A program made the position numbers and the translations under genes. Of a DNA stretch of 64,000 nt, positions 614-57,081 are shown piece after piece. The notes beneath the pieces were generated by a model, which ran no database searches, was not told the DNA's origin, and saw only the letters and a list, made by a program, of their open reading frames with translations. Origin of the DNA: Octopus vulgaris (Eukaryota); the NCBI GenBank assembly GCA_951406725.2, contig OX597822.1:98952001-99016000 (forward strand). Reading direction: 5' to 3'. The number at the start of each line of letters is the position of its first letter. Position 1 is the stretch's first letter.

Positions 614-846
614 TATTTCTTTACCACCCACAAGAGGCTAAACACAGAGAAGACAAATAAGGACAGACAAACGGATTAAGTCGATTATATCGAGCCCAGT
701 GTGTAACTGGTACTTATTTAATTGACCCCGAAAGGATGAAAGGCAAAGTCGACCTTGGTGGAATTTGAACTCAGAACGTAACCGCAGACGAAATACCACT
801 GAGCATTTCGCCTGGTGTGCTAACAATTCTGCCAGCTCGCTGCCTT
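614..846 (-). mobile_element. tRNA-derived SINE family A (MetaSINE-like core)
   Basis: Head GGCGAGCTGGCAGAA..GTTCAAATTC, core GCCTTTCATCCTTTCGGGGTCGATAAA..AGTACCAG, tail ..AAAGAAATA; TSD of about 15 bp TTTATTATGTTAYCT. Other copies: about 10860-11016(-), 18030-18250(+), 24551-24740(+), 34490-34690(+), 35927-36340(+, dimeric), 37648-37882(+), 55168-55402(-), 55410-55572(-). Confidence 0.85.
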
Positions 847-6825: not shown

Positions 6826-8078
6826 CGAGGGGCGTTCAATAAGTAATGCTCCTGACCCACTTCCCATAGCAGTAGAGCAACGAAACTTGGCACAGTAATT
6901 AGTCTTCTTCTACATAGGAACCACCCAGAGTTACGCATTTCTCCCATCGTATGATGCGGCTCTGGAGACCGTTTTTGTAGAAGACCCCAGCTTGGTCCTC
7001 CAACCTGAATGTGACTTCAGAAATCAAGGCTGCAACATCTGGGAAACGCTTTCCTTTCAAAAACAACTTCATGACTGGGAAGAGGTGAAAATCAGAGGGT
7101 GCAAGGTCAGGAAAGTAGGGGGATGGGGGAGGAGTTCATAGCCATACGCCTGTGCTTCTGATCTGGCGACAAGCGAGTTGTGGACTGGAGCGTTGTCCTG
7201 CAGGAGGAGGATGCCTTTGCTGATCTTGCCCCGCCTCTTGATTTTGATAACTTCTCTTAAATTCCTCAAAAGTGAAGCATAATAAGCTCCTGCAATTGTG
7301 GTACCCTTTGCCAGGAAATCTGTCATCACTACTCCGTCCTGGTCCCAGAAGACTGTGAGCATGACCTTGCCAGCGGAGGGCTGCACCCTTGCCTTCTTTG
7401 GAGGGGGTGAGTCACGGTGCTTCCACTGCATTGACTGGGCTTTGGTCTCTGGATCATCGTGATGGACCCAGGTTTCATCCTGTGTAATCAGTCTTTTGAA
7501 AAATTTTGACTCATCTTCTTGGCACATCTCCAAATTCACCCTCGAGCACTCGACACGTTCTTGCTTCTGGAAAGGTGTGAGCAACCTGGGAATCCATCTG
7601 GCAGACACCTTTTGCATATGCAAATGGTCATGAATGATAGTTTCCACAGACCCGGTACTAATCTTGACCTCATGGGCAATTTGGCGAATAATTATGCGTC
7701 GATCTTCCAAAATGGCAGCCTCAACTTGACGGACAGATGCCTCATCAATGGCAGAAGGGGCGACCAGATCTGGGAGCTGTTTCCACAGAGTTCTGACCAT
7801 GTTTGAATTCACGATGCCAGCGTTTTACAAGGTCATATGATGGGGCATCATCACCATAAGTTACTTTCATTTCATCGAAAGTCTCCCGTGGTGTGCGTCC
7901 TTTCAAATACAAAAACCGAATCACTGCTCAACACTCAACAGGCTCCATTTCACACTTGACTCGGTTCAAACACCTGTAAATCAGAAACCACAATTAATTC
8001 AGAGAGATATAAATGATTGCACATGCAAAATTTCAGCTAGATCAAACAACTGCAATTGGGTCAGAGGCATTACAGAGG
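6826..8078 (-). mobile_element. Mariner (DD34D) DNA transposon, decayed, inserted into a SINE
   Basis: TA TSD at 6824-6825 and 8079-8080. Left TIR CGAGGGGCGTTCAATAAGTAATGCTCCTGACCCA; right TIR partial (TGGGTCAGAGGCATTAC). Confidence 0.9.
6899..7948 (-). pseudogene. Mariner transposase pseudogene
   Basis: ARWIPRLL, TQDETWVHH and QDNAPVH motifs plus a frameshifted (Y)FPDLAPSD, giving D34D spacing. Early TGA after MEPVEC and at least two frameshifts. Confidence 0.9.
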
Positions 8079-8450
8079 TATGTATTTCCCAGCTGGATGG
8101 GACACCAGTCCTTCGCAGCATTACTCATTTTTGCCAGCTGAGTAGAGTGGAGCAACGTGAAATGAAGTGTTTTACTCAAGAGCACAATGTTTTGTCCGCT
8201 CCAGGAATCGAAACCACAACTTACGATCATGATGCTGACACCCTAACCACTAAGCCATGTGCCTCCACATATATGACATTAACAGAGTTGAATTTACTTT
8301 CTCTGATTCAATAATTGCAAAAAGAATTAAGCAATGTTGTTACTCATATATGCTTTATACTCTCTACAAATGATATTTGGAGCTACATTCTTAGATCTTA
8401 TTTCTTTGTTCAAGGCACTGAACTCCTGGTCATACTGAAGCACCAAGTAC

Positions 8451-8805
8451 TTTTCAAACTCCACCTGTCTAACACCCGTGGACATGTTTACAAAGTCAGA
8501 AAACAGCACAGCTCCCATGACTTTAGGAAACATTTTTTCACGCTAAGAGTTGCTGAAGCATGGAACAAACTGCCAGCATCAGTTGTTAGTTGTCGGAGCA
8601 CTGCATCCTTCAAAACTTCCATGCTTCCTGAGATTCGCCAACACCACACCTGATTTTCTCCCCTCCATACACACACAACCATGTATCTGACTCCTACACT
8701 GTTCACTTTCCAGACATTTGTACATTACTGCATATACTTTATACGCACTTTTGATAAGTTGTGGTGAACCTGAGCACTGTATACAATAATTTCATTATTA
8801 TTATT
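8451..8805 (+). mobile_element. CR1-clade LINE 3' fragment
   Basis: TRGHVYKVRK..RKHFFTLRVAEAWNKLP C-terminus, then a 3' UTR ending CTGAGCACTGTATACAATAATTTC(ATT)n. Confidence 0.85.
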
Positions 8806-9306
8806 ATTTTATTATTTATATTTATGTGACAATTCCCCATTTTCAATCATCTGTCACACTCTTTTCACACTCTAATGCCCTTGCTTGCCCACTCTTTCTG
8901 TTTCACAATTCCCTTTTTCTTTCTCTCTCTCACCTTCATATCCACCTCGGGCTTTGAGAGCATGCTCTCACCATCTCTCTCTCTCTCTATTTTTCCAGCC
9001 AAGGAAGCCATGGATTCACCTCTTTGGCAAAACATCTGTTTCTGTCTCTCTGTCATACTTTCACATTCTTCAATACTACACTCTACGCACTTAATGGGTC
9101 TTGTCTTGCAAGTACTTGGTGACCTCACTAATGTCAGTATCACAGAAAAAAAAAAAAAAGCTCTAGTACACACTATAAAGTGGTTGATGTTAGGAAAGGC
9201 ATCCCTCTGTAAAAATTACATCAAAGCAGACAATGGAGCTTGGTGCAGTCCTCTGGCTCCTGTTGAACCATCCAACCCATGCTAGCATGGAAAACAGGAT
9301 TATTAA

Positions 9307-9338: not shown

Positions 9339-11370
9339 AAGAATTTTAGTGATGATGACAATGATGACAATGTTAGCGATGCCGACAACAACAATGATGA
9401 TGATGAATATAACACAGGGTCATAACTTCTAAACAGCATTTCCTAGACATATTACCTTTGGACAATATCTTCCCAAGTGTATAATTTTCTAATGATCAGA
9501 TCAATGGTGAATCATTTCCAAACAGTCTCATCTGTGTACAGTCTCTCAATAACATGCTCAACAATGTAAAGCTTCTAACCAATGTTTCCCCCAACATAAT
9601 TAAACTATATTACATGATACTTCACTGATGATATTAATATCTCAACAACACTGGCTTTAACAGTATAAACAAATGTAATTTTACTTTGTAAATGCAATTA
9701 GCAGATTTTATTTTACGAGTGTGACAGTTTTTTTTTGGTTTTGTTTGTGTTTAACTGAAATAGATGCAAGTAATGTTTATTCAAAAATCTAATCTTTTCA
9801 TTTTGACAATATTCTAGAAATAATTATATTTGTCCTTCTCGTTTACTGTTTGAAATAAGAAATTAGCTTCCAGCCTGCTTTGAATTTCTCGTTTAAATTT
9901 GAAGTGGTAACAGTGCTAGTTAACTAAATTGGAAATTACATCTGAGAAAATGAAAGAGAAAGTAAGACAGAGATACAGAGAGAGTGGGGTAGAAATGGAA
10001 AGAAAGAGGAAAACAGGATCATCCAACAGGTGCATACAAGTCACTAACTGTTAGTAACCACCTACTCATTATAAACTGAAGCTCGTATACCAGTGAAAGT
10101 AAAACCAATTTAAATTTTGCACCTGGATGACAATTAACAACAGCTCAAAAAGTGATAAACACTTGAAGAAAATTCAAAGTAAATAGCTTAAACTTTAAAC
10201 ACAAATTACAGCTAGAAAGCAATTCTTTCTTAACATACGTAGGCATAGGAGTGGCTGTGTGGTAAGTAGCTTACTTACGAACCTTATGGTTCTGGGTTCA
10301 GTCCCACTACATGGCATCTTGGGCAAGTGTCTTTTACTATAGCCTCGGGCCAACCAAAGCCTTGTGAGTGGATTTGGTAGAGGGAAACTGAAGGAAGCCT
10401 GTCATATATATGTATATATATATATATATATATATACTAGCATTAAAGACCCGTCGTTGCCGGGTCATAGTGCTAGTGCATGTATATATGTGTACATATT
10501 ACATGTACATCTATATATATATATATACACATAAAATACAAAATACAAAGTTATATCTTGATATAGCTAGTGATAACAATACTCAAAATATATAACAGAC
10601 TGGAATTGTTAGCCCGTCTCTTGTAATTTCAATCAATTGTATCTTGTCCTCCCTCTTGTATAGAAGTGTGGCTACAATCCGACGGCTGCAGCGAAATTAA
10701 TTTTTGGACTTTCTTCTATCGAAGACATTTTGACAAAAGTACTTCTGTGTAAACGGTGAAAATATTGTCAATTTCCCCAAACAGGGACACAATTCAATTT
10801 TTAAACGATAACCAAAGCTCCTTCTCCCAAAGGGGGAGGGTTATGGTTTACAATTATTTAACAAATGCAACACAACAGTGTTCAACTGGTAATTGTTTTA
10901 TCGATCCCGCAAGGATGAAAGACGCCGACGACCTCGGCGGAATTAGAACTCAGAATGTAAAGACATGAAATACCACAAAGCATTTCACCCAGCGTGCTAA
11001 CGATTCTGCCAGCTTACGAGGAACCAACAAACGTGATAACAATAGTTAAACAGAAATAATAATAACAACAAACCTTACGGTTGAAGCTATAGGCCTTTAT
11101 GGATCAGAAATAAACTAACAGCGGTACTCAGTAGATATTTCTTTATTAAGATTATAAAAATCGATACACAGAAGGACAAATACAGGACATACATACAAAA
11201 ACATTTAAGAGATTCGATTAAAAATTATGTTTCAATTCGTTATAAAATATTAACCTTTGCATAACTAGTATAGCAAACAACAGTAGGTGAACTTGTAGTC
11301 TCACTGGAGCTTTTACACCCCGGCAATTTATGAGGCCCTGCAGCTTCCACTTCCTCTCTCTCCTCCATGG

Positions 11371-14300
11371 TCAAGCTGGGTTTCTCACACCCACCTTTCT
11401 TTCCACTTCCTTCCATCTTTTCTCATACACACCCCGCGGCAAGGCCCTCCTCTCCAGCCCCATTTTGCTCTTCAGATGATATCTGAAGTAGGTGAGCAAG
11501 CTGGGGCCGGAGACAAAGGACCCTATCGCGGCTCCTTCCATTCTCGTTCTCCACATGCATTCCTTTACCACTGCAACCGTGCAGTGAAAACATGCCTCAC
11601 CTTCCTTCGAGAGTCCAGTTGGCGGTATCATCTTAATCATAGACTCAGCCGACAGCTGTACTCGTCCCAGATGCGATAACACGTGTTCTGCGTAACTTAT
11701 CAAGTCGGACAACTTCCGACAGTGAACAAAAGCGTGCTGGACGGTTTCATCGTCCAACCCGCACCTTGGACACGTCGGTGGCACTTGAACTCCGTGCCGC
11801 GATAACTTCTCGCGAACAGGTAAAGCATTCCTGTAGCACTGCCAGGCCAGGGATCTTTGGAAATTATCCAAATACCCCGACCTGAAAGTTTTTTTAAACA
11901 GGTTGGCAAGCTGGTCTTCATCAAACCCCAGAGCCCCTCCTAGGACGTCGTCATTTTTTGCTTCCACCAGCCCTCTATAAAATACCGAGGTGGTATTTCC
12001 GCAGCCGGCCTTGCCCGTCCTGTGGATCAGCGTGAGTGCCTGTCGGCACTCCTTTTGCCATGGAGTCAGTTTCCATCTTTTGATGTAACCGGGTTTAAAA
12101 TTCACTAAGGAGGCCGGTCTCGGGAAAAAACCCTCTGCCAGCGGACTCCACACCTTATCACCCTCCAGGTGGTGCCAGAGGTGCCTTAGCCTCAACGCAT
12201 GTCTGCGCATCATCAACCAAGGCATCCCTAACCCACCCTTTAACGGTTCTTGGCAGCAAACGGAGCGTCTCACAAGTGGCTTTCCTCCTTTCCACAAAAA
12301 GCGGAAAAGGATTCGTTCCAACTTGTTAAGCCATGAATCGGGGCAAGGGACGACGGTCAGGCGGTAGGTGATTACAGATGCAATGAACATCTGTACCACC
12401 TCCGCCTTTCCTTTCAAGGACAGAGACCTTCCGGACCAGGTCCGTACTATGGCCTCCACCTTGCTCGTCACCTCACTCCAGTTCTTCTCCGTTTGGGAGT
12501 CTGGTCCAAACCAAACTCCCAGCAACTTAACAGGGCCATCCGTCCAGTGTCCCACGACACTGGACGATATCGGCTTGCTCCTCCAGGTGCCGAGGCGCAA
12601 GCCAACCGATTTGTCCTTGTTAACCCTTGCTCCTGCCACCGCCTCGTATCCTCTGATAGCCTCCTCTACACAAGGTAGTTGGGCCTCTTTGGACACGATG
12701 AGGGTGACGTCATCCGCGTAAGCAGTAACCGTCCTCCCACCTCCGATTTCATCCGAGTTACTCCCCAGCCTCTCCAACTTTCGCAGCAGTGGCTCAAGAG
12801 CCAATACGTACAAAAGTGGTGACAAGGGGCACCCCTGACGCACTGAACACTTGATCGAAAACGGTTCCGTTAGGTAACCGTTTATCTGGACGGTGGACTT
12901 GATGCCGCTATACATAGCGGAGATCCACCCGCGAAATTCAGGGCCCAGCCCAGTCGCTTCGAGGACCGTCGCCAGGTACCCATGGTCTACCCTATCGAAG
13001 GCTTTACTTTGGTCTAAATGGACCATTACCCCACCTTTGCCGGCTAATTTACCCACCCTATCTAAGGTGTAGCGTATAAGGTGAAGATTGTCCTGGATCG
13101 ACCTGCCTGGAATTGCACATGTCTGTGCTCTCCCTACAAGTTTCTCCACGACAACCGTCAACCTTTTTGCTAACACCTTGGCCAGAATCTTTAACTCTAC
13201 ATTAAGTAGAGTTATGGGCCTGTAGTTACTAATATTATCCCCCTTGCTCGGGTCTTTCTGGATTAGCGTCACCACTCCCCGGCTTACAGAACTGGGGATT
13301 CTCCCATTCTGCTGCCAGTTCGTGTAGACGCCTGCCAGTATTCCCCCGAACAAGTCCGGCATACTTTGGTAAAACTCATAGGGCAGACCATCCAACCCCG
13401 GCGACTTCTCCCCGGCGCATCCGGCCAGTATCTCCTTTATCTCCGCGGGAGTGATCGCTCCCTCACAGCACTCCACTTCACGCCCCGCGAGCCGCGGTCC
13501 GCCGGCCAGGAAGTCCTTTAAGGCCCTCCCCCGATCCAGCGAACCACCACCCCCGAACACGCGAGCGAAATGCTGGTGAAGAAACTTTTGCATCTCCTCC
13601 TGTCCATAGATCTTTTGTCCCTGTTCGTCAGTCAAAGATTTAATTGAGGCTCTATTGCCTCTCTTACTCTCCACACGACGGGCCCATCCGGCCACGTTAA
13701 TACCTTCTCGTTTCCCAGCACGCAGCTTAGCTCTGACTCTGCAACCTTCGTACTTGGAGTTAAGGTGACGGTACAATACCGTCCTTGCCGCCAACACTCC
13801 GGATGCAGAGCCAGCTTCCATTGCCTCGTCTAGATTCTTGACTAAATCGCCCTCTAGACTAGCCCTATCTATCCTTAGCTGATTGCTAAATCTGACGGAC
13901 TCTAAACGAATGGCTCTTTTGAGGGCGTGCCACCATCTATTGTTAATGATGGTGCCACACAATGCCCTCTGAACTAACACCTTAATCCGGGTACGGAAGT
14001 CTTCACAATTCAAAATAGCCTTGTTCAGCTTCCAGTACCCGGGTCCCTGTCTATGACACTTGTCTAATTGCACCTCACACGTCACAAATTTGTGATCCGA
14101 GTAAGGTACAATATGAAATTGTGGACAACTAAACGTATCCTTATCTCTTTTCTTAATAAATATCCTATCTAGATACGATCTGTGTGAGCCGTCGTTGTTA
14201 CTCCACGTCCACTGTGGAACGCTCGGCTCATCCAGTCGGTAACGGTCCACTAGATCAAAGCTCTCTAGTAGACCCTTGAGGCTAGGGTTCCCCTTCCTAT

Positions 14301-14760
14301 TGGTTGAGCCAACACTGTCGATGTGCGCTTCAAGGACAGTGTTAAAGTCCCCTACTAGGATTACTGTTTTCGACGTCGCTAAAAAGGGCTCCAGGTTCCG
14401 GAAAAAACCCGTCTGTCTACCCTCGTTCGGGGCGTAGACAGCTACCAACCTGAAGGACTGTTTACTTACGTGAGTCACATCCAGGACAACCAGCCTGCCT
14501 TCTGGGTCCAGAAAGACAGTACTTACCTGCAAGTCCAAGCTCTTCCTGATGAAGACTGCCACGCCTCTGCCTCTTCCTCGGCTAGGAGAAATAAATTTCT
14601 CGAAACCATTTAGAAGAGGCGAGAACGCTTGGGTCTCGCTCATCTTGGACTCGGTTGCAATAGCAATATCTACACTGTGTGTCGTGAGGTCGTTCAGGAA
14701 ACAAATTTGTTTCCGTTTCGACCCCATTCCACGTACATTTATACAGCCCAGCTTAGCCAT
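11371..14760 (-). CDS. LINE ORF2: APE endonuclease + reverse transcriptase + C-terminal zf-RVT, 1129 aa, uninterrupted
   Basis: APE motifs INVRG, ATES, VYAP, GDFN, LDRIFI, SDHK; linker GPGYWKLN; RT motifs KSPGLDG, NYRPITLLN, KAFDRVDH, VRQGCPLSP, AYADD; CPRC..ETVQHAFVHC zinc finger. This architecture is typical of Tx1/L1. Confidence 0.95.
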   Translation of the reverse strand: MAKLGCINVRGMGSKRKQICFLNDLTTHSVDIAIATESKMSETQAFSPLLNGFEKFISPSRGRGRGVAVFIRKSLDLQVSTVFLDPEGRLVVLDVTHVSKQSFRLVAVYAPNEGRQTGFFRNLEPFLATSKTVILVGDFNTVLEAHIDSVGSTNRKGNPSLKGLLESFDLVDRYRLDEPSVPQWTWSNNDGSHRSYLDRIFIKKRDKDTFSCPQFHIVPYSDHKFVTCEVQLDKCHRQGPGYWKLNKAILNCEDFRTRIKVLVQRALCGTIINNRWWHALKRAIRLESVRFSNQLRIDRASLEGDLVKNLDEAMEAGSASGVLAARTVLYRHLNSKYEGCRVRAKLRAGKREGINVAGWARRVESKRGNRASIKSLTDEQGQKIYGQEEMQKFLHQHFARVFGGGGSLDRGRALKDFLAGGPRLAGREVECCEGAITPAEIKEILAGCAGEKSPGLDGLPYEFYQSMPDLFGGILAGVYTNWQQNGRIPSSVSRGVVTLIQKDPSKGDNISNYRPITLLNVELKILAKVLAKRLTVVVEKLVGRAQTCAIPGRSIQDNLHLIRYTLDRVGKLAGKGGVMVHLDQSKAFDRVDHGYLATVLEATGLGPEFRGWISAMYSGIKSTVQINGYLTEPFSIKCSVRQGCPLSPLLYVLALEPLLRKLERLGSNSDEIGGGRTVTAYADDVTLIVSKEAQLPCVEEAIRGYEAVAGARVNKDKSVGLRLGTWRSKPISSSVVGHWTDGPVKLLGVWFGPDSQTEKNWSEVTSKVEAIVRTWSGRSLSLKGKAEVVQMFIASVITYRLTVVPCPDSWLNKLERILFRFLWKGGKPLVRRSVCCQEPLKGGLGMPWLMMRRHALRLRHLWHHLEGDKVWSPLAEGFFPRPASLVNFKPGYIKRWKLTPWQKECRQALTLIHRTGKAGCGNTTSVFYRGLVEAKNDDVLGGALGFDEDQLANLFKKTFRSGYLDNFQRSLAWQCYRNALPVREKLSRHGVQVPPTCPRCGLDDETVQHAFVHCRKLSDLISYAEHVLSHLGRVQLSAESMIKMIPPTGLSKEGEACFHCTVAVVKECMWRTRMEGAAIGSFVSGPSLLTYFRYHLKSKMGLERRALPRGVYEKRWKEVERKVGVRNPA

Positions 14761-14788
14761 TGTGGGTGAGAGAAGGAAATGTATATAC

Positions 14789-16212
14789 TCACGGTTGCGA
14801 GAGGGAGCATGACAGTTTCAATCTGCCTGCTTCCCTTTCTTCCGTTGCTGCAGGGTTCTTGACCGGCGTTGCCACTGGGCTCTGGGTGGGTGTGGTTGCC
14901 GGGGTTATTGCCAGTTTACCCTCCATTACCTCCTTGGTTACATCTCTAATAAGACGGTTCCTCAGGTGTTCCTGAAGAACCTCCTCCTTCCACTCGTTCT
15001 CCCCTACCTTCGCGAAACGAGCGGTCGCCTTCCCATCTGAGGTTCTACTATACAGTGGAAATCTCGCGAGTTTGCAGCATTTGTAAACTTTTTCATTTTT
15101 TTCATCAAAGGCTATAATTCTTTCGTTTTTCGATATGCACTTTTTGATGTCTTGTTTTATGGGGAGGGGTTTGGCAAACTGTTTTCCAATGAAAACAGTG
15201 CCATGGGGGTAGGGTTGGGGGATTTGTTTAATGTGTGTGTCTGCTGTGTTTGTTGTTTTTTTCCTTGTTTGGGGAGGGGAGTCCTGGGTGTTCTCTTTTT
15301 TCTTTTGTGTGTGACTTGTGTGTAGTCCATTGGTTCTTTTGAATCCGTTTTCGTTTCCGTACTTGTCTTCTTCATTTGGTTGTTCTTGCTTGTTTCCTCC
15401 CCTTCAGTGACAGGTACACTTTGAGGAGGCGTTTCTTCTGTTCTTTTTTTCTTAATGCAGTTGGACCGGACGTGACCCTTCTCTCCACACTTGAAGCATC
15501 TGGGTCTACGTCCCTCCACCGACACTCTCATGGACGTGCCGTCCTCATTAAAAATTCTGTCAGGCAGGCTCTCCAAGATCTTGTTCTCTGCCTGTACGAG
15601 GAGTTCCAAGGTCTGACCCTTCCAGCGTACCACTTCCTTCCTTCTCATTTGCAGAATTGAAATTTCCCGCTCCATGTTGTGTAGTACCGCCGCTGCCACC
15701 CACATGATGTCGTACCCTCTGGGTATGTCATCTACCACTAACTTTGCAGTTCGTTTCCCCATATACGAGGGTAACAACATGATGTCGTCGCTTTTTAAGG
15801 TTAACGACGACACCTCCTTCGCCACTTCTGCCGTGTCGAAGTGCACCTCTACCGTAGCACTACGTGCGCCTCTCGCGATGTGACGAATTCTGTCCCACAC
15901 CGGGGACAGGCACTTCTCAACAATTTCGTTTTTCGCGTCCATAATCTTTTTTTCCTTAAAGCTATACACTTTATAAGTTACAATCCTTTCCTTGATTTCT
16001 TGCACTTTCGCTTGCGGCGGTACCAGCCTTATCTCTCCTCCTTCCACCTTTACAAGATTCCTGTATTCATACAGCTGTTCGATCTTGAATTCGACCTCTA
16101 TCATAGCGCCGCCCACCGCGGCCGAGAATGACTGTTTGGTTACTGGGTTTTCCATGGTTTCACCTTTTCCCATCACGGGAAAATCGTCCTTCGACGTTAA
16201 GTCGAACTCCAT
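14789..16212 (-). CDS. LINE ORF1 (gag-like, CCHC zinc knuckle), split by a -1 frameshift; about 474 aa if restored
   Basis: Zinc knuckle CFKCGEKGHVRSNC; likely start ATG at 16212. Frame 0 stops at 15157, but the -1 frame is open from the A7 run (15256-15262) to a TGA at 14789-14791, 28 nt before the ORF2 ATG. Confidence 0.8.
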
Positions 16213-17152
16213 CACCTCAAAGGTAGCAAATTTCAAATAATACAAAATTTTCTGCCCCGTAGGGCGAAAATCACCGTTTCACAACGGGCACTGTTCAAAG
16301 CAGTTGGTACAAACAATAAATTCACAACTTCGACTCTCTTAAATGGGAGCAGCAATTTTCTCACAACGCAAACAGAAAAATAACGCAATTAACAGAAGCG
16401 GTACTCAGTAGAATGCTTAATGCTAGCTAATTAGCATATAATCTAATGTAAAAGCCGTGCACACTGCCATCTGGACTATTCCATTTCTGCACTTAAATTT
16501 TATTTTATATTTATTCCCATTCATGTGAAACCACTGATTCAAGTTCAAGTCATTGATGCAATTTCATACCAATTGCTATTTTTACTTTTGTTATGTTACG
16601 ATAATATTATACTTTAGTTTGATTTTAATTATTACTTACTACATATAATTCAATTGTTATTATTATTTTTATTGTTAAAGTGAAAGTATCTGACATAAAA
16701 TAGGGAAATGTTTTTGTTTCACTTTTAACATGTAATACTGAAATAGTGGAGAAGATATGATATTGCTATGGGCTCGCTCTAGGCAAGAAGTTGAACATTT
16801 TTTTTGCCCATGAAACTACATGGACCCTAAGTAAGGCATGTGTAAAATTTGAATGAAATTGTTTGTGTAGTTCTCAAGTTTTAGGAAAACACACAGACAG
16901 ACACACATTCTCAGTTTTATATATATAAAGATGTATGTGTGTGTATATGAATATACATATATATATATATATAGTTAATCCTCCAAAAAGGAAGAAAAAC
17001 CACAACAAGAAAAAACAACAATGAGAGGACGTGGCACATACAAAGTATTAGTAGATGCTCAGGGAAAGAAAGAAAGGTAGTTTTATGTCTCGAGTAAAGC
17101 TCCTCAGAAACCGGAGGCAGAGGAAAGTCCAAGAGAAAAGGAAGATGGAGGA

Positions 17153-17190: not shown

Positions 17191-18580
17191 CATCATCATC
17201 CTCATTTAACATCCGCTTTCCATGCTAGCATGGGTTTGACAATTTGACGGAGGTCTGGCGAACCAGACACCAATCTGATCTGGCAGAGTTTCTACAGCTG
17301 GATGCCCTTCCTAATGCCAACCACTCCAAGAGTGTGGTGGGTGCTTTTATGTGCCACCGGCACATGGGCCAGTTTGGAGGTACTGGCAACGGCCATGCCC
17401 AAATGGTGCTTTTTATGTGCTACCTGCACAGGAGTCAGTCCAGCGGCACTGATGATGACCTCGCTTGAGCGGCACTGGCGACGACCTCGCTATACACACA
17501 CATACACATACATATTCAATGTGTATGTGTGTCTTTGTGTGTGCGCTTGTCCCCTCACCACTGTGTGATAACTGTTGCTGGGTGTATTTATATCCCACGA
17601 CTTAGAGGTTTGGCAAAAGAGTCCAATATAAATATCAGGCTTTACAAAATATAAAAAATAAATAAATACAGGTTTTGATTTGTTCAACTAAAATTCCTCA
17701 AGGCAATGCTCCAGCATGGCTGCAGTCTAATGGCTGAAACAAGTAAAAGATAAATGTATAAAATTACACAGAAAAACAAAAAAAAATTAGGAAAGCAAAA
17801 GTTCATAGTAGTTCTTCATAGATAAGTAAATTTCTTGAAGTTCAGACTCTAACCTTTCTTATCTGTGAAGTTAGAATATGAATTCTCTGGATATCTACCT
17901 ATCCAGGAAGAACTACTACAAAGGAATACTTGGAATTTTCATTCTCTCTTTTATCTGTGAAAAAATATTATGAATTTTTGATTTCTTGATTTTCCTGCTT
18001 TTCTGCTTAGTTATATTTATATTCACTTAAAAGGCGGCGAGCTGGCAGAAACGTTAGCATGCCCGGTGAAATGCTTAGCAGTATTTCGTCTGCCGTTACG
18101 TTCTGAGTTCAAATTCCGCCGAGGTCGACTTTGCCTTTCATCCTTTCGGGGTCGATAAATTAAGGACCAGTTACGCACTGGGGTCGATATAATCGACTTA
18201 ATCCAATTGTCTGTCCTTGTTTGTCCCTTCTATGTTTAGCCCCTTGTGAGCTATATATATTTATATTCACTTCTGTATTGTGTGCTATATATATTTATAT
18301 TCACTTCTGTATTATTTTTTGTATGTGTTTTGATGCCATTAACAACCAATAATCCATCTTTGATTTTAAAAATAGGAATTACAAATTATAGACAATAATG
18401 TCTCGTTGCATCATACACACACAAGCACATGAAAGCACATATACATACACACACATACAGGCACATACACAATCTCTATAACACACAAACACACACACAA
18501 CACACACACAAATACATGCACACATACACACTTACACACATGATTGCATAATTTACCTCTTAGAATTAATTATTAACTGA

Positions 18581-18985
18581 TAGGTGCAGGAGTGGCTGTG
18601 TGGTAAGTAGCTTGCTTCCAAACCACATGGTACCGGGTTCAGTCCCACTGTGTGATACCTTGGGCAAGTGTCTTCTACTATAGCCTCGGGCTGACCAAAG
18701 CCTTGTGAGTGGATTTGGTAGATGGAAACTGAAAGGAGCCCATTTTATATATGTGTGTGTGTGTGTGTGTATGTTTGTGTGTGTGTTTGTCCCCCCAACA
18801 TCGCTTGACAACCGATGCTGGTGTGTTTACGTCCTCGTCACTTAGTGGTTCGGCAGGAGAGACCGATATAATAAGTACTAGGCTTACAAAGAATAAGTCT
18901 TGGGGTCGATTTGCTCGACTAAAGGCAGTGCTCCAGCATGGCCGCAGTCAAATGACTGAAACAAATAAAAGTAAAAGGAAAAGGA
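18581..18985 (+). mobile_element. tRNA-derived SINE family B with a central (TA/TG)n microsatellite
   Basis: Head GCAGGAGTGGCTGTGTGGTAAG..GGTTCAGTCCC, tail GCATGGCCGCAGTCAAATGACTGAAACAAGTAAAAG. Other copies: 3150-3965(-), 10238-17752(+, split), 21041-21508(+), 22909-23136(+), 24117-24537(-), 32620-33255(+), 45905-46760(+), 56229-56628(-), 56898-57770(+), 60995-61165(-), 61295-61648(+). Confidence 0.85.
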
Positions 18986-24379: not shown

Positions 24380-24747
24380 TGGGCTTCTTTCAGTTTCTGT
24401 CGACCAAATCTACTCACAAGGCTTTTGTCAGCTTGAGGCTACAATAGAAGACACTTGGCCAAGGTGCCACATAGTAAGAACTGAACCCGGAGCCATGTGG
24501 TTGGGAAGCAAGCTTCTTAACTCATAGCTATGCCTATAGAACCAATATATAAAGGCGGCAAGCTGGCAGAAACGTTAGCATGGCAGGTGAAATTCTTAGT
24601 TCAAATTCCGCTGAGGTCGACTTTGCCTTCCATCCTTTTGAGGTCAATAAATGGAGTACCAGTTGCATACTGGGGTTGATCTAATCGACTGTCCCCCTCC
24701 CCCAAAATTTCGGACCTTGTGCTTAGAGTAGAAAAGTATATAACCAA

Positions 24748-25296: not shown

Positions 25297-25340
<44 letters not shown>

Positions 25341-25460
25341 TAACAATTAAGGAACGGCCATAATAGGCCATTCACCCACTAGAAATAACAGCCAAAGCTT
25401 CTACCGCAAATAAAGATTAATTCCGTAAACAGGAGAAAATTAAAAAAACATTTACCCTGT

Positions 25461-25569
25461 TATTTCTTGTACGGTATACCGTTTCATCTGCTGTTTAATG
25501 GTAAACTAACCTGATTAAATTAAATCAAGCCAATCTTCCATAAGCCCTCAGATTCTTCAGCAAGAAATA
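25461..25569 (-). ncRNA. Type I hammerhead ribozyme, copy 1
   Basis: Minus strand: UAUUUCUUG CUGAAGA AUCUG...CAGAU GAAA CGGUAUACCG UA CAAGAAAUA. Stem I is 9 bp, the core is intact and the cleavage triplet is GUA. Confidence 0.85.
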
Positions 25570-25945
25570 GCTCAAGTCGGAACAGATATTTACACGAGGC
25601 ATACCCAATCCTGCCAAGGCAATATCTGACCTAAAATTTTCAAATCGTCGCACTCGCGCCAAATTTATCGGCAGCAAATAAATCGTCGATTCCATTACGG
25701 AATTAACCAAAAAATTCATAATTAATCAATATAGGGTGGCAAGGAAAATTTTGTAGAATTTTTTTGCCACCAGCGGCCCAGTGGGAAAAAATTAAATAGT
25801 CATAGACCATTTTTAAGTTCAACATTAACAATTAAGGAACGGCCATAATAGGCCATTCACCCACTAGAAATAACAGCCAAAGCTTCTACCGCAAATAAAG
25901 ATTAATTCCGTAAACAGGAGAAAATTAAAAAAACATTTACCCTGT

Positions 25946-26054
25946 TATTTCTTGTACGGTATACCGTTTCATCTGCTGTTTAATGGTAAACTAACCTGAT
26001 TAAATTAAATCAAGCCAATCTTCCATAAGCCCTCAGATTCTTCAGCAAGAAATA
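25946..26054 (-). ncRNA. Type I hammerhead ribozyme, copy 2 (identical to copy 1)
   Basis: Same sequence, offset by 485 bp. Confidence 0.85.
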
Positions 26055-26171
26055 GCTCAAGTCGGAACAGATATTTACACGAGGCATACCCAATCCTGCC
26101 AAGGCAATATCTGACCTAAAATTTTCAAATCGTCGCACTCGCGCCAAATTTATCGGCAGCAAATATATTGA

Positions 26172-29899: not shown

Positions 29900-30960
29900 G
29901 AGAGAAACCACGGCAAAGGAAGACCTGTCCTTAGGTATAAGGATAAGTTGGAGCAATCACTAAAATCTCTACAGGTTAACTTGATATCTTGGGAAAGCCA
30001 TTGCTTAGATTGATCTACGTGGTATAAAATGTGTCATGATGCATCCAAATGATTTGAGTTGAAGAAGAACAACAATAGAAGAACTATATCCTACAACCTT
30101 TGCCATGGTTTTCTTCCACTTGTTGGCCATACAGAAGAATTTTTGGAATGCAGTCATTTTTCATTCGAATAACATGTCCTACTCATCTGCACTGAATTCT
30201 CATCAGCATTCTTTGGATACTGAGATGTCACAATTTTCAAAGATTTTGACATTAGATATCTCATCTTGCTATTTTATGCTGCATATGTTGAGCAAACAGA
30301 ACATGTGAAAGGTTTCAAGTTTCTTTATATGTCTCAAGTAGGTAGTCCATGTTTCTGCCCCATAGAAGAGTGTGCTCAAAAAACAAGATTTGTATACAAT
30401 TATTTTAGTTTTCAGACTGACATTGTGTTTATCCCACTGCCGGTGGCACGTAAAAAGCACCATCCATTCGTGGTCGTTGCCAGCAGCGCCCCGACTGGCC
30501 TCCATGCCGGTGGCATATAAAAGCACCATCGGTTCATGTCCGTTGCCAGCCTCACCTGGCCCCCGTGCCAGTGGCACATAAAAGCACCATCCGTTCGTGG
30601 CCGTTTGCCAGCTCCATCTGGCACCTGTGCGGGTGGCACGTAAAAAGCACCCACTACACTCGCGGAGTGGTTGGCGTTAGGAAGGGCATCCAGTCGTAGA
30701 AACACTGCCAGATCAGACTGGGCCTGATGCAGCCTTCTGGCTTCACAGACCCCAGTTGAACCGTCCTACCCATGCTAGCATGGAAAACGGACGCTAAATG
30801 GTGATGATGATGATGATGAGAAAGTTTTCCAAAAGCCTTTGTAGCCTTAGATATTCTAACATTCATTTTGTCATCAAGAGTACTCTTCAAGTTTACTGTA
30901 CTTCCAAGATATTTAAATGGCCTGACCCATTTGAGTGGCTTGTTGTCTATCATCACTTTT
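29900..30960 (-). mobile_element. RTE/BovB-like LINE 3' coding fragment, interrupted by an RTE tail at 30437-30818
   Basis: FKYLGSTVN..RISKATKAFGKL and YKSCFLSTLFYGAETWT..KKLETFH. Confidence 0.75.
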
Positions 30961-32130: not shown

Positions 32131-32418
32131 AGTACAGAGGTTTATCTTTGGCTAGATATTTCTCCTGCAGTTGCCTTACCAGAAATATAGCATCAGTGGT
32201 GCTTCTGCCTGGCACAAAATCAAACTGCATCTCATATAGGCAAACTCTCTCCCTAAATAGTTGGGTTATGACCCTCTCTGCAACTTTCATCACCTGATCC
32301 AATAATCTGACACCCTTGTAGTTATTTCTATCTAAAACATCACCTTTCCCTTTGTAGCAGTTGACTACAGTGCTGCTACACCAGTCATTGGGTATGACTC
32401 CTTCATGAACTACCTGAT
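32131..32418 (-). mobile_element. RTE-clade LINE RT fragment
   Basis: QFDFVPGRSTTDAIFLVRQLQEKY; homologous to 29620-29870. Confidence 0.85.
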
Positions 32419-32687
32419 ATATATATATACATACATAGGAAAGGCATCGAGCTGTAGGAACTCTGCCAGATCAGATTGGAGCCTGGTTCTGCATTCATTT
32501 AAAGACTCTCCTTTGTTACTGACACCATCAGAAATGTTGTCAGGGTATTTACTCAAGATATGATTTAAAGTTTTGCATGTCTAAAATTTCATTTTATTGA
32601 TTTTTAAAAAAAAGAAGTAATCTTTGTGTGTTTAAGAAGTTTGTTTCACAACCACATTGTTTTGAGATCCACTTCAGAGTACTTTAA

Positions 32688-32908: not shown

Positions 32909-34421
32909 TTAAGCAAGTGTTTTCTTTTATTTCCTGAGTTGACCAATGCCTTGTCAGGAATTCATTGATAGAAACTGAATGGAAGCCCGTCATATGTGTG
33001 TGTGTTTGTGTGTGTATGTGTGTGTGTGCCTGTATGTATATGTACGTGCCTTTGTGTGTGTGCCTCCATCACTTGAAAACTGGTGTCGGTTTGTTTACCT
33101 CCCTTTAACTTAACAGATTGACAAAAGAGCCAGATCGAATAAGGATCAAACTATAAAAAAAAAAGTGCTGGGGTTAATTTGGTCAACTAAATCATTGAAG
33201 GTGATGCTCCAGCATGGCTACAGTCTAATGACTGAAACAGGAAAAAAAATAATAAAAGAAGGAAAATAAATTCGTTTGGAAATGAAGCACAAATAAATAT
33301 AGAAGAAGAAAGAAATTTGACGATGAATAAATATTAAGATTACATTATAAAAATAAGTTGAGGTTTATGTGACAAGGCTTACAGGCAAGTCTGATATTTG
33401 TTGCTCTTGTCAATATAATCTGTTTCACCTCTGTCAAATAACATAATCATTTAAGCAAGTATTTTCTGGCTGTATTTGAAATTTGGAAACACTTGTAATT
33501 CTCTATGCTTAAAGAAAGGATAATTGTTTTGTGCAAATTTCAGCTTTGTAACTAAAAACAAAACTGCCTGTGATAAGGTCAACTGTAATTGGGAAGAAAT
33601 AAAGAGAAAAATAACAAAAACTAAAAATAAGCCAAGGAAATAAATCAATCCTTTATTTATTTATTTTTTTCCTTGTTTTAGAAACTAATGAATTTTCTGG
33701 CCCAATTCTCCAGACAATAAGAATTTCGTTCACATCAAAAATATCAAGAAAAATACTGTGTTGCTTAAATAAAGTTTTTACAGCTGTGAAATAAACATCA
33801 TGTAAATAGAAAGATTTCAAATATCCAACAGTGCATTGTAAGTGATAGCTATTATGACAGATGTCACATCAATTAGATTTTACTTACATACGCAGCACGC
33901 ACAAGTGCTGGTGCATACACACACACATGACACAGGCATACACACATGCATGCACACATAAGAGCCAGATTGAATAAGGCTCAAACTATATAAAAAAAAA
34001 GTGCTGGGGGTCAATTTGATCAGCTAAATCATTGAAGGTGGTGCTCCAGCATGGCTGCAGTCCAAAGACTGAAACAGGAAAAAGAATAAAAGAAGGAAAA
34101 TAATTTTGTTTGGAAATGAAGCACAAATAAATACAGAAGAGAAAAGAAATTTGACAATGAATAAATATTAAGATTGGCTTTACATTCTGAGTTCAAATTC
34201 TGTCGAAGTCGATTTTACCATTCATCCTTTTAGCGGGGGGGGGGGTCGATAAAATAAGTACCAGTTGAGTACTGGGACTTACCCACTTGCTTCACTTACT
34301 GCATGTACTTTATATGCACTTTCTGACAAGTTGTGGTGCACCTGAGCACTGTATACAATAATTTCATTATTATTATATTATTATTATATTTGCCTTCATG
34401 GGAATAACTTTCCATTTAGCT

Positions 34422-34882
34422 CAGTGGTTCTCAACTGGGGTCTATATGACCCTGGTGTAGGGTACATAAGATTTTGTTGCTGTGCAATAAGGTGAGCTGG
34501 CAGAATTGTTAGCATGCTGGGCAAAATGCTAAGCAGCATTTCGTCTGGCTTTACATTCTGAGTTCAAATTCTGTCGAAGTCGATTTTACCATTCATCCTT
34601 TTTGGGGGGTCGATAAAATAAGTACCAGTTGAGTACTGGGACTTACCCACTTACCCCAATTTTGCTGGTCTTGTGCCAAAATCTGAAACCAAAATTTATG
34701 TGCAATAAATTTGCTATACTCTTACAAAATATTTTAACAATTTTTTTATATAATTCCTATTAATATTTAATTATATAAATATAAGATTTTTAAAACAGTG
34801 ATTGGCCGTGAAGGTCCAGAAGAGTTAAGTAGGCAACAAAAGGGGGATCTATAGGTAAAAAAAAAATCGTTGAGAACCACTG
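34422..34882. mobile_element. hAT/Charlie-type MITE containing a nested family A SINE
   Basis: 14-bp TIR CAGTGGTTCTCAAC / GTTGAGAACCACTG; the 8-bp TSD is only partly recognisable. Confidence 0.7.
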
Positions 34883-35647: not shown

Positions 35648-37893
35648 CTTTTTCCAACCCATGTTGGCATAAAAATTGGATATTAAATGATGATGAGGAT
35701 GATGTATGTGTATTGTAGAAAGTGCTGAACTGGAAAATGATTGGCCGAGGTATTTGTTTCAGTCTTTTATGAATTCACTGACCTGGTTGATATGGAGAAC
35801 TCGTCAATATCTAGTTGATAAGATAGTATCTCAAAAGAATACAACATGGAACCATCTTTGTATTACCCTACAAAAATTCCATGATGGGTATGAAACAAAT
35901 TTTATTAGTTGACTTAACTGAGTTTTTGGCAAGCTGACAGAATTGTTAGCATGCCAGGTGAAATGCTTAGAGGTATTTTGTCTGCCGTTATGTTCTGAGT
36001 TCAAATTTCACCAAGGTTGACTTTGCCTTTGATCCTTTCAGGGTCGATTAAATAAGTACCAGTCATGCACTGGGGTCGATATAATCGACTTAATCTATTT
36101 GTCTGTCCTTGTTTGTCCTCTCTGTGTTTAGCCCCTTGTAGGTAGTAAAGAAATAGGTATTTCGTCTGCCCTTACATTCTGAGTTCAAATTCTGCTGAGG
36201 TTGACTTTGCCTTTCATCCTTTCGGGGTTGATTAAATAAGAACCAGTCACGTACTGGGGTCGATATACTCGACTTAATCTCTTTGCCTGTCCTTGTTTGT
36301 CCCCTCTATGTTTAGCCCCCTGTGGGCAATAAAGAAATAAATCTATATAGATTTAACAGTAAATTAATAAATTATGGGATTTTGGGATTAGGGTTGACCA
36401 ACAAAACAAACTGAATTTTGATTCAATAAACAATGGTGTAAATAAATTACAGAGGAAAAGAGAAAATGAAAAATTTGAGAAGAATATAGTTGTGTAATCG
36501 TTACCGCGTTGCCTTACTAGCACTTGTGCTGGTGGCATGTGAAACATTCAAGCGAGGTCGTCGCCAGTGCCACTGGACTGGCTCCTGTGCAGGTGGCACA
36601 TAAAAAGCACCATTTGGGCGTGGCCGTTGCCAGTACCACCAAACTGGCCCTCATGCCGGTGGCACGTGAAAGCACCTACTACACTCCCAGAGTGGTTGAC
36701 ATTAGGAAGGGCATCCAGCTGTAGAAACTCTGCCAGATCATATTGGAGTTTGGTTCGCCAGACCTCAGTCAAATCGTCCAACCCATGCTAGCATGGAAAG
36801 CGGACGTTAAATGATGATGAAGATGATGTTTGTGTACATTAAAACTTAGAAAGATCTCTGTGGAAACTATTTCAGGAGAGATACTCTCCTTATAGATAAT
36901 ATATGAGTGAAAACACATTGAACTGAGCTTTAAGTGACATTATCAGACCACAAGACATGTGTTTCTGTGTTGATATACTTCATCAACTATGTATACTGAA
37001 TTCGATGTTCACAGCTGATGAAGTTTAACTATGCAGAAACATGTGTCCTATGATCCTATGACTTCCATCACAGCCTAGTTGTGTGTTTTTACATACACAG
37101 CCCGTGTTGGTGGCACGTAAAAAGCACCCACTACACTCAGTCAAAATCGTCCAACCCATGCTAGCATGGAAAGCGGACGTTAAACGATGATGATGATGAT
37201 GATGACAGCATATAAGAGGGCGAGGTTTCCCACCTGAGAATTTCCAAAGATAAGTCTTTTCATATTTGAGTGTATTGGAATGTGCTAGATATAAATGCAT
37301 ATGTGCTAGATATAAATGTATACAGTTTTATTTTAATCATCACTGATTAATGAACCTTCAATCAATAAAGAATTTTCATTTCTATCTTAAGTACAAGGCA
37401 GCGAATATTGGGGAAGAGTCTAGGTAATAGTATCAACTCCATTATTTGAGTGGGTACCAAAGAAAACAAGAAAAAACCAGTAGCACTGGTAGAGAACTCC
37501 TTCAAGTGCAGTCATTGTATGTGTGTCTGCCTATCCTGTGTGGTGCAGAAGATGCTGCACTACCATCAGCAGCTGATACATTTTCTTCAGGTGCAGATCC
37601 ATGGTTTCTTGGGACTGACAGATACCTACAGAATACTATTATTTATATAAAGGCAGTGAGCTGGCAGAATCATTAGCATGCCGGGTGAAATGCTTATCGG
37701 CATTTCGTCTGCCGTTACATTCTGAGTTCAAATTCCGCCGAGGTTGACTTTGCCTTTCATCCTTTCGGGGTCAATAAATTAAGTACCAGTTATGCACTGG
37801 GGTCGATGTAATCGACTTAATCCCTTTGTCTGTCCTTGTTTGTCCCCTCTATGTTTAGCCCCTTGTGGGTAGTAAGAAATAAGAATACTATTA

Positions 37894-38260
37894 TCTCTCT
37901 ATATATAAACGGCAGTTTGTCTGTGTGTGTTTCTGTGTGTCTGTTAGGTTGTACCCTCACCCTGACCACGGCTTTCAACCGATTCTGATGAAACTTGACA
38001 CACACATAGCCCAATGTCATAATTCAAAACTAACGCAGCGAAAATTTTGAAAAGTTCCCCCAGTTCTGAAAAAAATCGATAAATTCGACATGGGGTCGAG
38101 AATCAGAAACACAAACCACAGTCTGTCTAGGGGACGCAACTCGACCTTTTTAACTAAAAAAAAAAATTTACCATAATTTTTTTTCCATTTTTTGGCTATA
38201 ACTCTCTAAAAATGCTTTATTTCCCTTACAAACCCGAGCAACGCCGGGCGATACTGCTAG
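37894..38260 (+). mobile_element. Non-autonomous Helitron, about 370 bp
   Basis: 5' A|TC, 3' hairpin CCCGAGCAACGCCGGG then CTAG|T. Close copies at 57082-57465 and 63163-63534. Confidence 0.85.
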
Positions 38261-52984: not shown

Positions 52985-53015
<31 letters not shown>

Positions 53016-53025
53016 ATACAAATAC

Positions 53026-54170: not shown

Positions 54171-57081
54171 TTTTTTTTATTAAAGCTTCAAAAACATTAC
54201 ATAAACTATTACTCAGAGTTTCACATTCTTGTTCGTCAGATGAATGGGAACATGAAACTCTGAGTAACAGTTTTTGTGATTTTTTTGCAGATCTAATAAA
54301 AAAAGTATATTACTCTACCTTCAATATTAAAGTACTATATTTTCCACCTTGTTTTGCATTTATGTGCTTACTTGTGTGTGTATTTATATATATATGGAAC
54401 AAAACAGTTTGATTCAAATTCTGTGGTACTTAAAGTTTCAAAGTGTGATGCTTATCCTATTACAAATGGCTTTGAAACTTTAAGTACCATAGAATTTGAA
54501 TCCAACTGTTTTGATCCATACATGTAACTCCCAATAAATGTGTTGAGTGCTCTTCTTTTGTTTGTCCACTCACTTGTGTGTGTGTGTGTGTATGTATGTA
54601 TATATATATATATATATAATCATTATCATAGGAGTGGGATTGAAACTGTGACTCCACGACTCACTCATTGTACTTGCTGAAGTCATGAAATATTTATATA
54701 ATTGAAATTCCCCAAATTTTCTATCACAACTTTCAGTTAATTTCATTCAAATTTGAAGACATCTCATATATTATCTTATAATTACATTTTATTAACACCT
54801 ATAAATGTTTTCAAATATTTTAGTAACCTTCCTCCTTAGGGAAGAGACAAGGCCATTATATGCGTTTTGTTTTCTATCAGACTATAATCTGTGTTGTTTT
54901 CTAAAGAAAGACAAAATTAAAGCTTGAACTGGTCAGTTGCAAGACTGAAAAATCATTAAGTAGTGAAAAGATAGCAGTAAGGTGGGTATAACTTGCAATA
55001 CTCAGAGTTGGCTACCAACTAAGTGATGTCATATAACAGACTTATCAGAGGATGAAGTGCAGGTATGAGAATTCTGATGGGAAACTGTGGTTTTGTGTCT
55101 TCTGATGAACTCACACTATTGGTTTCAAATTTTGGCAATTTCAGGGGCGGTGGGTAACTCTATTATCTATTTCTTTACTACCCACAAGGGGCTAAACACA
55201 GAGAGGACAAACAAGGACAGACAAATGGATCAAGTTGAATTTTATCGACCCCAGTGCGTAACTGGTACTTATTTAATCGACCCCGAAAGGATGAAAGGCA
55301 AAGTCGACCTGGGCGGAATTTAAACTCAGAATGTAGCAACTGACGAAATACTGCTAAGCATTTCGCCCGGTGTGCTAACGTTTCTGCCAACTCACCACCT
55401 TATAACTCTATTATCTCGACCCCAGTGCATGACTGGTACTTATTTTATGAACCTTGAAAGCATGAAAGGTAAAGTTGACCTTGGCAGAATTTGAACTCAG
55501 AATGTAAAGACAAATGAAATGCCACTAAGCATTTTGCCGAGAGTGCTAATAATTTTGCCAGTTCGCTGCCTTCATGAAATCACAAGACTGACAATGGTCT
55601 GTCCTCATGCATGGCCATGTATAATGCAAATGTAAGTTATAGACATTAGCCAAAAATAATTGAATTTATCGAGTTCCAGATGAATCACGTTACAATATTA
55701 TTTGGTTGCTTCTTTGGTCTTTCTTCCTGTCTTTTAGTGATATAGTCATATTTTGGTGGCATTAGTTCTGAACATTTCTGCAAACATTCTTGGACCTTAC
55801 AAGTTCTTTTAAAATTTTTATGGTTGATAAGCAAAACCTGAAAATATTGACTTCTATTGAACATTTTGGCTTCTTATCTGAAGAATGTTTGGATTTTAAT
55901 ATTCTTCCAATATTCATTAATTTTGCTTTTGATTTAGCCAGTTCTCTTTGACTCAACAACATCTCTTGGTTATTAGTTCCAGTTTTGTTTGATCATATTC
56001 CAAACATTCTGCTGTCTTGCCTGCTTATTGAATTGCTTCATAAATATTTGTTTATGAACAGCAATCGTTAGTAACAGACAGAATTTTAAAAAATGGAGCT
56101 TGCCTATGATTTTTTCATTGCTTGGAATAAAACATCACACCATACTTTTCCATACATAATTTTAAAAAAAAATGAATTCTTAATCCTTAAAATTATCCCC
56201 CTTTTTTGGAGGGGAAGTCACTAAGAGTTCTTACTCTTTTACTCTTTTACTTGTTTCAGTCATTTGACTGCGGCCATGCTGGAGCACCGCCTTTAATCGA
56301 GCAACTCAACCCCGGGACTTATTCATTGTAAGCCCAGTACTTATTCTATCGGTCTCTTTTGCCGAACCGCTAAGTGACGGGGACATAAACACACCAGCAT
56401 CGGTTGTCAAGCAATGTTAGGGGGACAAACACAAACATACACGCACACACATATATATCCATATATACGACGGACTTCTTTCAGTTTCCATCTAGCAAAT
56501 CCACTCACAAGGCTTTGGTCGGCCCGAGGCTATAGTAGAAGACACTTGCCGAAGGTGCCACGCAGTGGGACTGAACCTGGAACCATGTGGTTGGTAAACA
56601 AGCTACTTACCACACAGCCACTCCTGCGTCTCTTGTTAGGATTTTGTTTAAATTCTCCCATTAAATGATACATTTTATATTAAGAATTTTTCTTGTATGA
56701 CATTCTATATGAAGACTTTAACTTATTTATCCAAATTCATGCTATTGGTCCATTTGATTTATTTCCCTTAGCTCATTAAAATTTCTTTTTTATTATTCAA
56801 ATTATACTTGTTAGATTATCTCTTTTTCTATATATGAAATCTTTACTATACTGTATTACAGAATATATCAGTTTTAGCCAACACTCTACACAAAAAGTGG
56901 CATGGTTGTGTGGTTAAGAAGTTTGCTTTGCAACCACAAGGTATTGAGTTCAGTCTCATTGTACAGCACCTTAGGCAAGAGTCTCTTATTAACTGGACTT
57001 ATTAATAGCATGTGAGTGACTTTGGTAGGTGGAAACTGCATGGAAGCCTTTCATCTCTCTCTCTCTTGCTATATATACATA

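Follow-up and report, generated by a model that had tools for sequence, protein, structure and literature searches.

A shared, poly(A)-free 3′ tail suggests a Tx1/L1-group LINE lineage as partner of an abundant octopus SINE family

Known LINE/SINE pairs

The eel elements UnaL2 and UnaSINE1 form a stringent LINE/SINE pair with co-terminal homology, in another clade than the one that concerns us here. Bivalve SINE pairs resemble the octopus case in having co-terminal homology of similar size (35–61 bp at 72–95%) and one SINE body with swapped tails. Their partners belong to CR1, CR1-Zenon, L2 and Nimb, and the word "Tx1" is absent from the text (PMC11481361).

For the L1 clade, the accessible part of PMC3472496 counts three L1-tailed SINEs among more than 800 LINEs. 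The pairs given in the available part of PMC3747384 are ZmSINE2 and ZmSINE3 with LINE1-1_ZM (maize, sorghum) and SINEX-3_CR with L1-1_CR (Chlamydomonas). As far as that part goes, they resemble what we describe below in that about 50–80 nt of an L1-clade 3′ end are shared with a tRNA-type SINE and conserved blocks lie around a variable stem. They differ in that the plant and algal hairpins are solid (−10.8 to −17.7 kcal/mol) and carry compensatory changes, whereas the octopus fold is weak (−3.3), in that the Chlamydomonas pair ends in poly(A) and the octopus elements do not, and in that their hosts are plants and an alga rather than an animal. Among animals, Tx1-Mar, a Tx1-clade LINE, has been suggested as the mobilizer of the crocodilian SINEU elements (PMC4494074). 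In the part of that paper available, the link is a shared target preference, the SINEU-1 3′ end being found in no LINE, whereas the octopus link is a shared tail; SINEU elements also have poly(A) ends and snRNA heads, unlike the octopus SINE.

In the literature, mostly open papers and outside Repbase, Dfam and the SINEBase supplement, we found no animal SINE that shares its 3′ tail with a Tx1 or L1 element. No Tx1/L1–SINE pair is named in the accessible parts of PMC4758252, PMC8967140, PMC9115989, PMC3531059, PMC13295347, PMC4176376 and PMC10886601 (29 mentions of "TX1" in the available part of PMC4176376 proved to be mutant names), and "Tx1" is absent from that of PMC5786205. For Octopus vulgaris itself, the available part of PMC13282606 reports 13 recently active L1-Tx1 families, with no SINE partner named, and SINEs amounting to 11.6% of the genome. 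Tail sharing as an arrangement is well known; the Tx1/L1 partner clade appears to be new for animals. If the pairing proposed here is true, it would be the first animal case in which an L1/Tx1-group element shares its tail with a SINE partner, and the stringent state that has been proposed for ancestral L1 would have a living representative. According to that published proposal ancestral L1 was stringent and relaxed later, and a poly(A)-free animal Tx1/L1 element with its SINE would be a direct test system, standing beside the solved human ORF2p structures. It would also name the partner of one octopod SINE family.

The LINE

The window, by which we mean the whole stretch of 64,000 nucleotides of O. 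vulgaris DNA under analysis, contains a LINE with a 184-nt 5′ UTR, ORF1, ORF2 and a 235-nt 3′ UTR (Table 1). An earlier note on this DNA had quoted its end at 11136–11222; we found that end as quoted, enclosed by a perfect 16-bp target-site duplication (TSD). The same note called the element intact, which is right for ORF2 and doubtful for ORF1. Tx1 elements carry a CCHC knuckle in ORF1, as this one does. ORF1 scores E 2e-4 and 21.5 bits (cut-off 20.8) against its Pfam family, and a second open frame shares the last 247 nt of ORF1 and stops 29 nt ahead of the start of ORF2. Because of this overlap a frameshift of ORF1 is possible in the copy at hand; the second frame is possibly the frameshifted C-terminal part of ORF1, or it may be a small extra ORF.

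Table 1. Coordinates of the LINE, the SINE copies, the shared tail and the repeat families in the window
Feature	Positions	Strand	Remarks
LINE, full-length, assigned to Tx1/L1 group, 5,261 bp	11136..16396	minus	without poly(A)
LINE 3′-side TSD, 16 bp	11120..11135		perfect, GC 0.50
LINE 5′-side TSD, 16 bp	16397..16412
ORF1, 351 aa, CCHC zinc knuckle	15157..16212	minus	PF00098
ORF2, 1,129 aa, open	11371..14760	minus	AP endonuclease, reverse transcriptase, zf-RVT
Second open frame, 204 aa stop to stop	14789..15403	minus	overlaps end of ORF1
Pyrimidine-rich core, 28 nt, common to LINE and SINE tail	11166..11193	minus
Terminal 10 nt	11136..11145	minus	identical to 4/6 SINE ends
Weaker upstream match to end of SINE body	11205..11222	minus	0.6% of 23,478 null windows reach its score
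Possible 4-bp stem with 5-nt loop, in unshared spacer	11150..11162	minus	weak, non-significant
Flank, high-copy host repeat entered by LINE	11030..11119		other copies continue without LINE
SINE copy with shared tail	614..844	minus	TSD 15 bp, one mismatch (600-614, 845-859)
SINE copy, core but no terminal block	18032..18250	plus	TSD 17 bp (18012-18028, 18256-18272)
SINE copy with shared tail, tandem unit 1	35928..36155	plus	TSD none found
SINE unit with shared tail, headless, tandem unit 2	36156..36339	plus	hairpin 36315-36327
SINE copy with shared tail	37651..37881	plus	TSD 13 bp (37630-37642, 37882-37894)
SINE copy with shared tail, nested in related SINE	55168..55400	minus	TSD 14 bp (55155-55168, 55403-55416)
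SINE-body relatives, other tails or none	24553-24730, 34173-34300, 34491-34700, 51644-51797, 55415-55571, 59072-59131, 61645-61790
Older tail-less SINE piece, ~79% to others	10876-11017	minus	120 bp past LINE 3′ end
Unclassified repeat family	8450-8825, 53003-53556, 58211-59083
Unclassified repeat family	37892-38276, 57070-57468, 63147-63537
Unclassified repeat family	18586-18977, 56231-56627
Unclassified repeat family	50093-50429, 62054-62716

Scored by one program throughout, ORF2 reaches 326 bits against Xenopus Tx1L, 228 against human L1 (whose ORF2p is its closest relative with a solved structure) and 155 against plant L1, in a set of named comparisons that contains no CR1, L2 or RTE reference; the E-values are 1.7e-66 for human L1 ORF2p and 6e-25 for R2. 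The nearest named relative is a protein of the octopod Argonauta hians, 63% identical over the reverse transcriptase region. The two group together with 98% SH-aLRT in a quick reverse transcriptase tree of 29 rows, from which human L1 is absent, and their lineage is not joined with support to the Tx1L group. Cluster look-ups returned no Tx1 name. With its two ORFs, and an endonuclease and reverse transcriptase nearer to L1/Tx1 than to the other clade compared, the LINE is assigned to the L1/Tx1 group; it is probably Tx1, although the link to the Tx1L branch has no support in the tree. With Tx1L (P0486, YTX2_XENLA), its best-scoring named reference, and with fish Tx1-group elements it has in common an APE-RT ORF2 and insertion in another repeat, although its ORF2 is just 30% identical to that of Tx1L over 845 aa and the octopus LINE is known from one insertion.

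The SINE family

A profile of the SINE body finds 14 related copies in the window, six of which carry the tail in question. They make up a short, non-coding, interspersed family of about 230 bp with five full copies 86–92% alike, and TSDs accompany four of five insertions; none was found for the tandem pair at 35928–36339. The ends that the earlier note had described at 614, 55168 and 36339 are there, and to these we can add ends at 36155 and 37881 and a copy at about 18250 that lacks the last block. Since one SINE body occurs with several different tails, the tail looks like a swapped-in module.

A B-box-like motif is present in all five full copies and an A-box-like motif in three of them. 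ARAGORN (0 genes) and Rfam detected no tRNA in the SINE or the window, and on the window Rfam gave merely sub-threshold microRNA matches, on microsatellites. This SINE may be among the octopus SINEs of Ohshima and Okada 1994. The label MetaSINE, which had been suggested for it, we have dropped, the body being by eye unlike the bivalve Meta-domain SINEs. The superfamily is defined by a 66-bp Meta domain after the head and, in the available part of PMC4824008, has a tRNA-like head, a conserved body and variable tails and is present in molluscs, in all of which our SINE, with its possibly tRNA-like head, is similar. Yet in a comparison by eye with two bivalve families our SINE's body resembles neither BivaMeta-SINE1 nor BivaMD-SINE1, and its central 8-mer is absent from the PMC4824008 supplement.

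Some peculiarities of individual copies deserve mention. In the tandem at 35928–36339 a full unit is followed by a headless one that starts at an internal position. At 55155–55571 the insertion went into the end-of-body palindrome of an older relative, and the palindrome sequence is the TSD. Three to eight extra A/T bases separate the 5′ TSD from the first base of the SINE at 37630–37650, 55400–55403 and 18028–18032. A second tail type recurs at 24553 and 61645, and probably at 34491 and in the host copy at 55415.

The shared 3′ end

LINE and SINE share two blocks, core and terminal, which are in register; both elements stop at the same base, and the absence of poly(A) reported earlier for the two ends holds. 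Five of the six tail-bearing SINE units end at the last base of the LINE or within one base of it. Against the copy at 614 the core has 26 identical columns, one mismatch and two one-base gaps. Six copies of the terminal 10-mer lie in the window: four at SINE ends, one at the LINE end and one at an unrelated site (42656). Between the blocks lies a spacer of 16–18 nt that differs between LINE and SINE, and identity over the whole tail is 39–47 of 80 columns. The weaker match upstream is also present in the SINE relative with another tail at 24553.

The likeness, for which shuffled controls had been the suggested check, exceeds both shuffled and empirical controls from the window. The core scores a mean of 88.0 against the six SINE cores and the best other masked position 59.0, none of 124,010 positions reaching the LINE's score. 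An end-anchored 60-nt alignment gives 114.8 against a best of 66.4 elsewhere (0 of 17,526 windows reach it), and among 280 offsets it peaks at exactly 11136. In local alignment, 0–2 of 3,000 shuffled UTRs attained the score with 5/−4, 0–14 with 2/−3 and 0–6 with 2/−1, and up to 110 of 3,000 shuffled tails did so for the weakest SINE copy. When the window was cut into 1,276 tiles, the LINE end ranked top among those not overlapping a SINE tail. A joint motif, composed after both sequences had been seen, occurs five times, in four SINEs and in the LINE, and 100 shuffles yielded no copy of it. All these tests were selected once the match was known, although the window has a single LINE end to test. 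General search tools see less: BLASTN of the LINE end against the window returned no SINE match, and an nhmmer profile of five SINE tails placed the LINE at E = 4.7 after bias correction. The shared 3′ end is nevertheless real, and of the family rather than of single copies.

Outside the window, ORF2 gave four pattern matches in viral contigs, none confirmed, and the SINE motif none. The joint motif was found at 10 loci of metagenome contigs and at seven loci of GTDB genomes; none of the 17 encodes a relative of ORF1 or ORF2, and no tail-like sequence appears among the eight joint-motif matches listed. In one metagenome contig (L001), positions 1583–1637 match the SINE body over 55 nt at 75%, separately from the joint-motif match there; this is possibly an animal SINE with a related domain.

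The tail on other LINE copies

Contigs from four of 24 listed sequencing runs aligned to 11030–11780. These runs (X1, X2, X12 and X18) come from three organisms, A with two runs, B and C, and X1 is possibly the source of the window itself. In each run a collapsed contig extends out of the UTR into the core, and its depth is many times that of most other listed records: 1,762 over 11183–11360 against 45–72 in X1, 554 against 11–26 in X2, 757 over 11174–11344 against 37–60 in X12, and 98.5 over 11174–11352 against 5–7 in X18. These depths do not give the number of copies, and part of the depth over the core may stem from SINE copies. Depth over the core does exceed that beside it in all four runs, but contig depth cannot rank the parts.

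Differences from our copy are unevenly spread. In X12, 15 of 23, and in X18, 15 of 21, fall within 11224–11287, the 64 nt that directly precede the shared region, which leaves at most eight in 107 nt and at most six in 115 nt, respectively, for a remainder that includes the core as well as UTR foreign to the SINE. Place 11164, in the spacer, is covered by contigs of all four runs, with a common one-base insertion. The main X12 and X18 contigs close with 41 letters that do not align to 11133–11173, so that the last 38 nt are unseen in them; the length of this piece fits an end near 11133–11136, and its sequence may differ. All four runs also contain a joint 11157->11389, one side of which has 23 letters (sides below 30 count as weak). 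Most simply, it represents a relative whose last 22 nt are the same but whose UTR is another one. Contigs of all four runs thus place the tail on many copies of the LINE, from three organisms, which rejects capture by a single copy: the tail is a trait of the LINE family.

Insertion sites

The three SINE TSDs quoted in the earlier note are present (15 bp with one mismatch, 14 and 17), and a 13-bp one at 37630/37882 joins them. Its statement that SINE and LINE have TSDs of similar length stands too: 13, 14, 15 and 17 bp for SINEs (n = 4) and 16 bp for the LINE (n = 1). Published TSDs are 7–18 bp, with a mode of 13–15, for the L1 clade and 7–15 bp, with a mode of 10–12, for RTE, whose signature is a T stretch about ten bases upstream (PMC6007223). 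The SINE lengths fit the L1 clade better than RTE, and one of the four SINE sites has an upstream T stretch. In composition the two elements part company, for the SINE TSDs are AT-rich (GC 0.12–0.21 in all four, window 0.38) and three begin with AG, whereas the LINE TSD, a single site, has a GC of 0.50 and begins with TC.

Other copies of the repeat that the LINE entered have about 20 more bases near 11081 and continue past 11135 into sequence like the right flank (16397–16430). They are empty sites, and a target preference of the LINE is possible.

Hairpin and AATAAA

A stem-loop just before AATAAA had been claimed for both elements. It can be drawn, at the set position, in the LINE and in three of five SINE ends (four of five by MFE), with the same geometry and different letters, which would suit a structural signal. 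The folds are, however, no more stable than those of shuffled sequences: z-scores are −0.74 for the LINE and −1.55 to +1.16 for the SINEs, and 12.8% of shuffled LINE ends have a stem of 4 bp with a 5-nt loop. AATAAA itself is found in one of five complete SINE ends; the others read GGTAAA, AGTAAA or AGTAAG. Of 143 AATAAA sites in the window, two continue with the same six bases.

A proposed partnership and its rivals

We think that this is a stringent LINE/SINE pair driven by an octopus Tx1/L1-group LINE lineage or a sister of it, and would give that reading a probability of about 60%. The last 60 or so bases of the SINE were likely taken from a multi-copy lineage of that group. The larger claim, that an abundant octopod SINE family is driven by an animal Tx1/L1-group lineage through recognition of a specific 3′ RNA signal free of poly(A), is more tentative, and we would put it a little short of even odds.

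In such a partnership Pol III would transcribe the SINE from its tRNA-like head, as the A- and B-box-like motifs suggest. An ORF2 protein of this LINE family or a close sister would then recognize the tail and copy the SINE; by analogy with the stringent L2 elements it may bind the pyrimidine-rich core, perhaps together with the weak stem-loop. Its endonuclease would nick the target and reverse transcription would presumably start, with no poly(A), at the fixed shared end, whose position we observe. Staggered cuts would leave the duplications of 13–17 bp that we see. Four of the five full SINE copies have no T4 run (a Pol III stop), so their transcripts would run past the SINE end; that five of six units still stop within one base of the last base of the LINE favors a protein that chooses the start point.

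Which LINE would this be? The unlike spacer suggests a sister family or an ancestor as the actual driver; from a current partner one might expect a younger or closer match. The copy at 11136–16396, put forward in the earlier note as a possible mobilizer, is not supported as the driver: its spacer differs, its target GC is 0.50 against 0.12–0.21, and its ORF1 may be frameshifted. The tail may have passed from LINE to SINE or from SINE to LINE. Against the pairing, the weak match at 11205–11222 reaches into sequence that a SINE of another tail type also has, which would suit capture by the LINE.

That direction underlies the strongest competing explanation, which we nonetheless consider unlikely: an ancestor of the LINE lineage took the 3′ part of the SINE by template switch, and the real partner of the SINE is another LINE. 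The extension of the weak match into the end of the SINE body (0.6% of nulls, and present at 24553) speaks for it, as does the difference in target composition, and with 14 SINE bodies in 64 kb such a capture would be easy. Yet BLASTN within the window finds no other SINE body sequence inside the LINE. Many LINE copies in three organisms carry the tail, and it seems better conserved than the UTR next to it, suggesting that the LINE uses it; a relaxed element lacking poly(A) would presumably be left with no other sequence for priming. The usual direction, in the available part of PMC3747384, is from LINE to SINE.

Less probable again is a tail derived from, or shared with, a third LINE of another clade that is the true mobilizer of the SINE. 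There are candidates, for recently active RTE, Dong-R4 and CR1 families are reported from Octopus vulgaris in the part of PMC13282606 available, and reported mollusc SINE partners are CR1, CR1-Zenon, L2 and Nimb (PMC11481361, again in the part available). The 13–17-bp TSDs suit RTE poorly, however, as does the rarity of the T-stretch signature, and the SINE has no terminal microsatellite, a feature of RTE-linked SINEs. CR1 and L2 elements, too, usually end in a microsatellite, which counts against them. Nothing else in the window matches the tail.

Chance, or convergence of two T-rich 3′ ends with a motif like a poly(A) signal, is improbable. In its favor, BLASTN and bias-corrected nhmmer give the match no score, and the search for such likenesses by reading the window came ahead of the tests. 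Against it, none of 124,010 positions matches the core alone as well, leaving the AATAAA block aside, and the terminal block keeps register with it; AATAAA, moreover, is missing from four of five SINE ends, and its next six bases recur at the two sites noted above. Very improbable, finally, is a single LINE copy that gained a SINE tail or sits inside a split SINE, as the old tail-less piece 120 bp away might suggest: the TSD encloses the tail, the tail recurs in many copies from three organisms, and single-copy capture fails unless the collapsed contigs all derive from duplication of the 11136–16396 locus. We had tried the nearby piece as the other half of a split SINE and rejected it, as it lies downstream of the tail, in the wrong order, with the tail within the TSD.

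Other features of the window

Several further elements lie in the window. On the minus strand, an ORF of 243 aa at 7069–7800 encodes a mariner-type transposase domain (PF01359, E 1.6e-23). An ORF of 176 aa at 40848–41378 is by eye like what we take to be the GIY-YIG end of a Penelope-like element. Weak traces of a reverse transcriptase element at 30236–30436 and 32159–32491 (minus; tblastn E ~1e-6 to one distant reverse transcriptase protein) show no match to the tail. The unclassified interspersed repeat families of Table 1 have members of 200–500 bp that are 80–95% alike, and a near-perfect (99.7%) direct duplication of 345 bp occupies 25339–25683 and 25824–26168.
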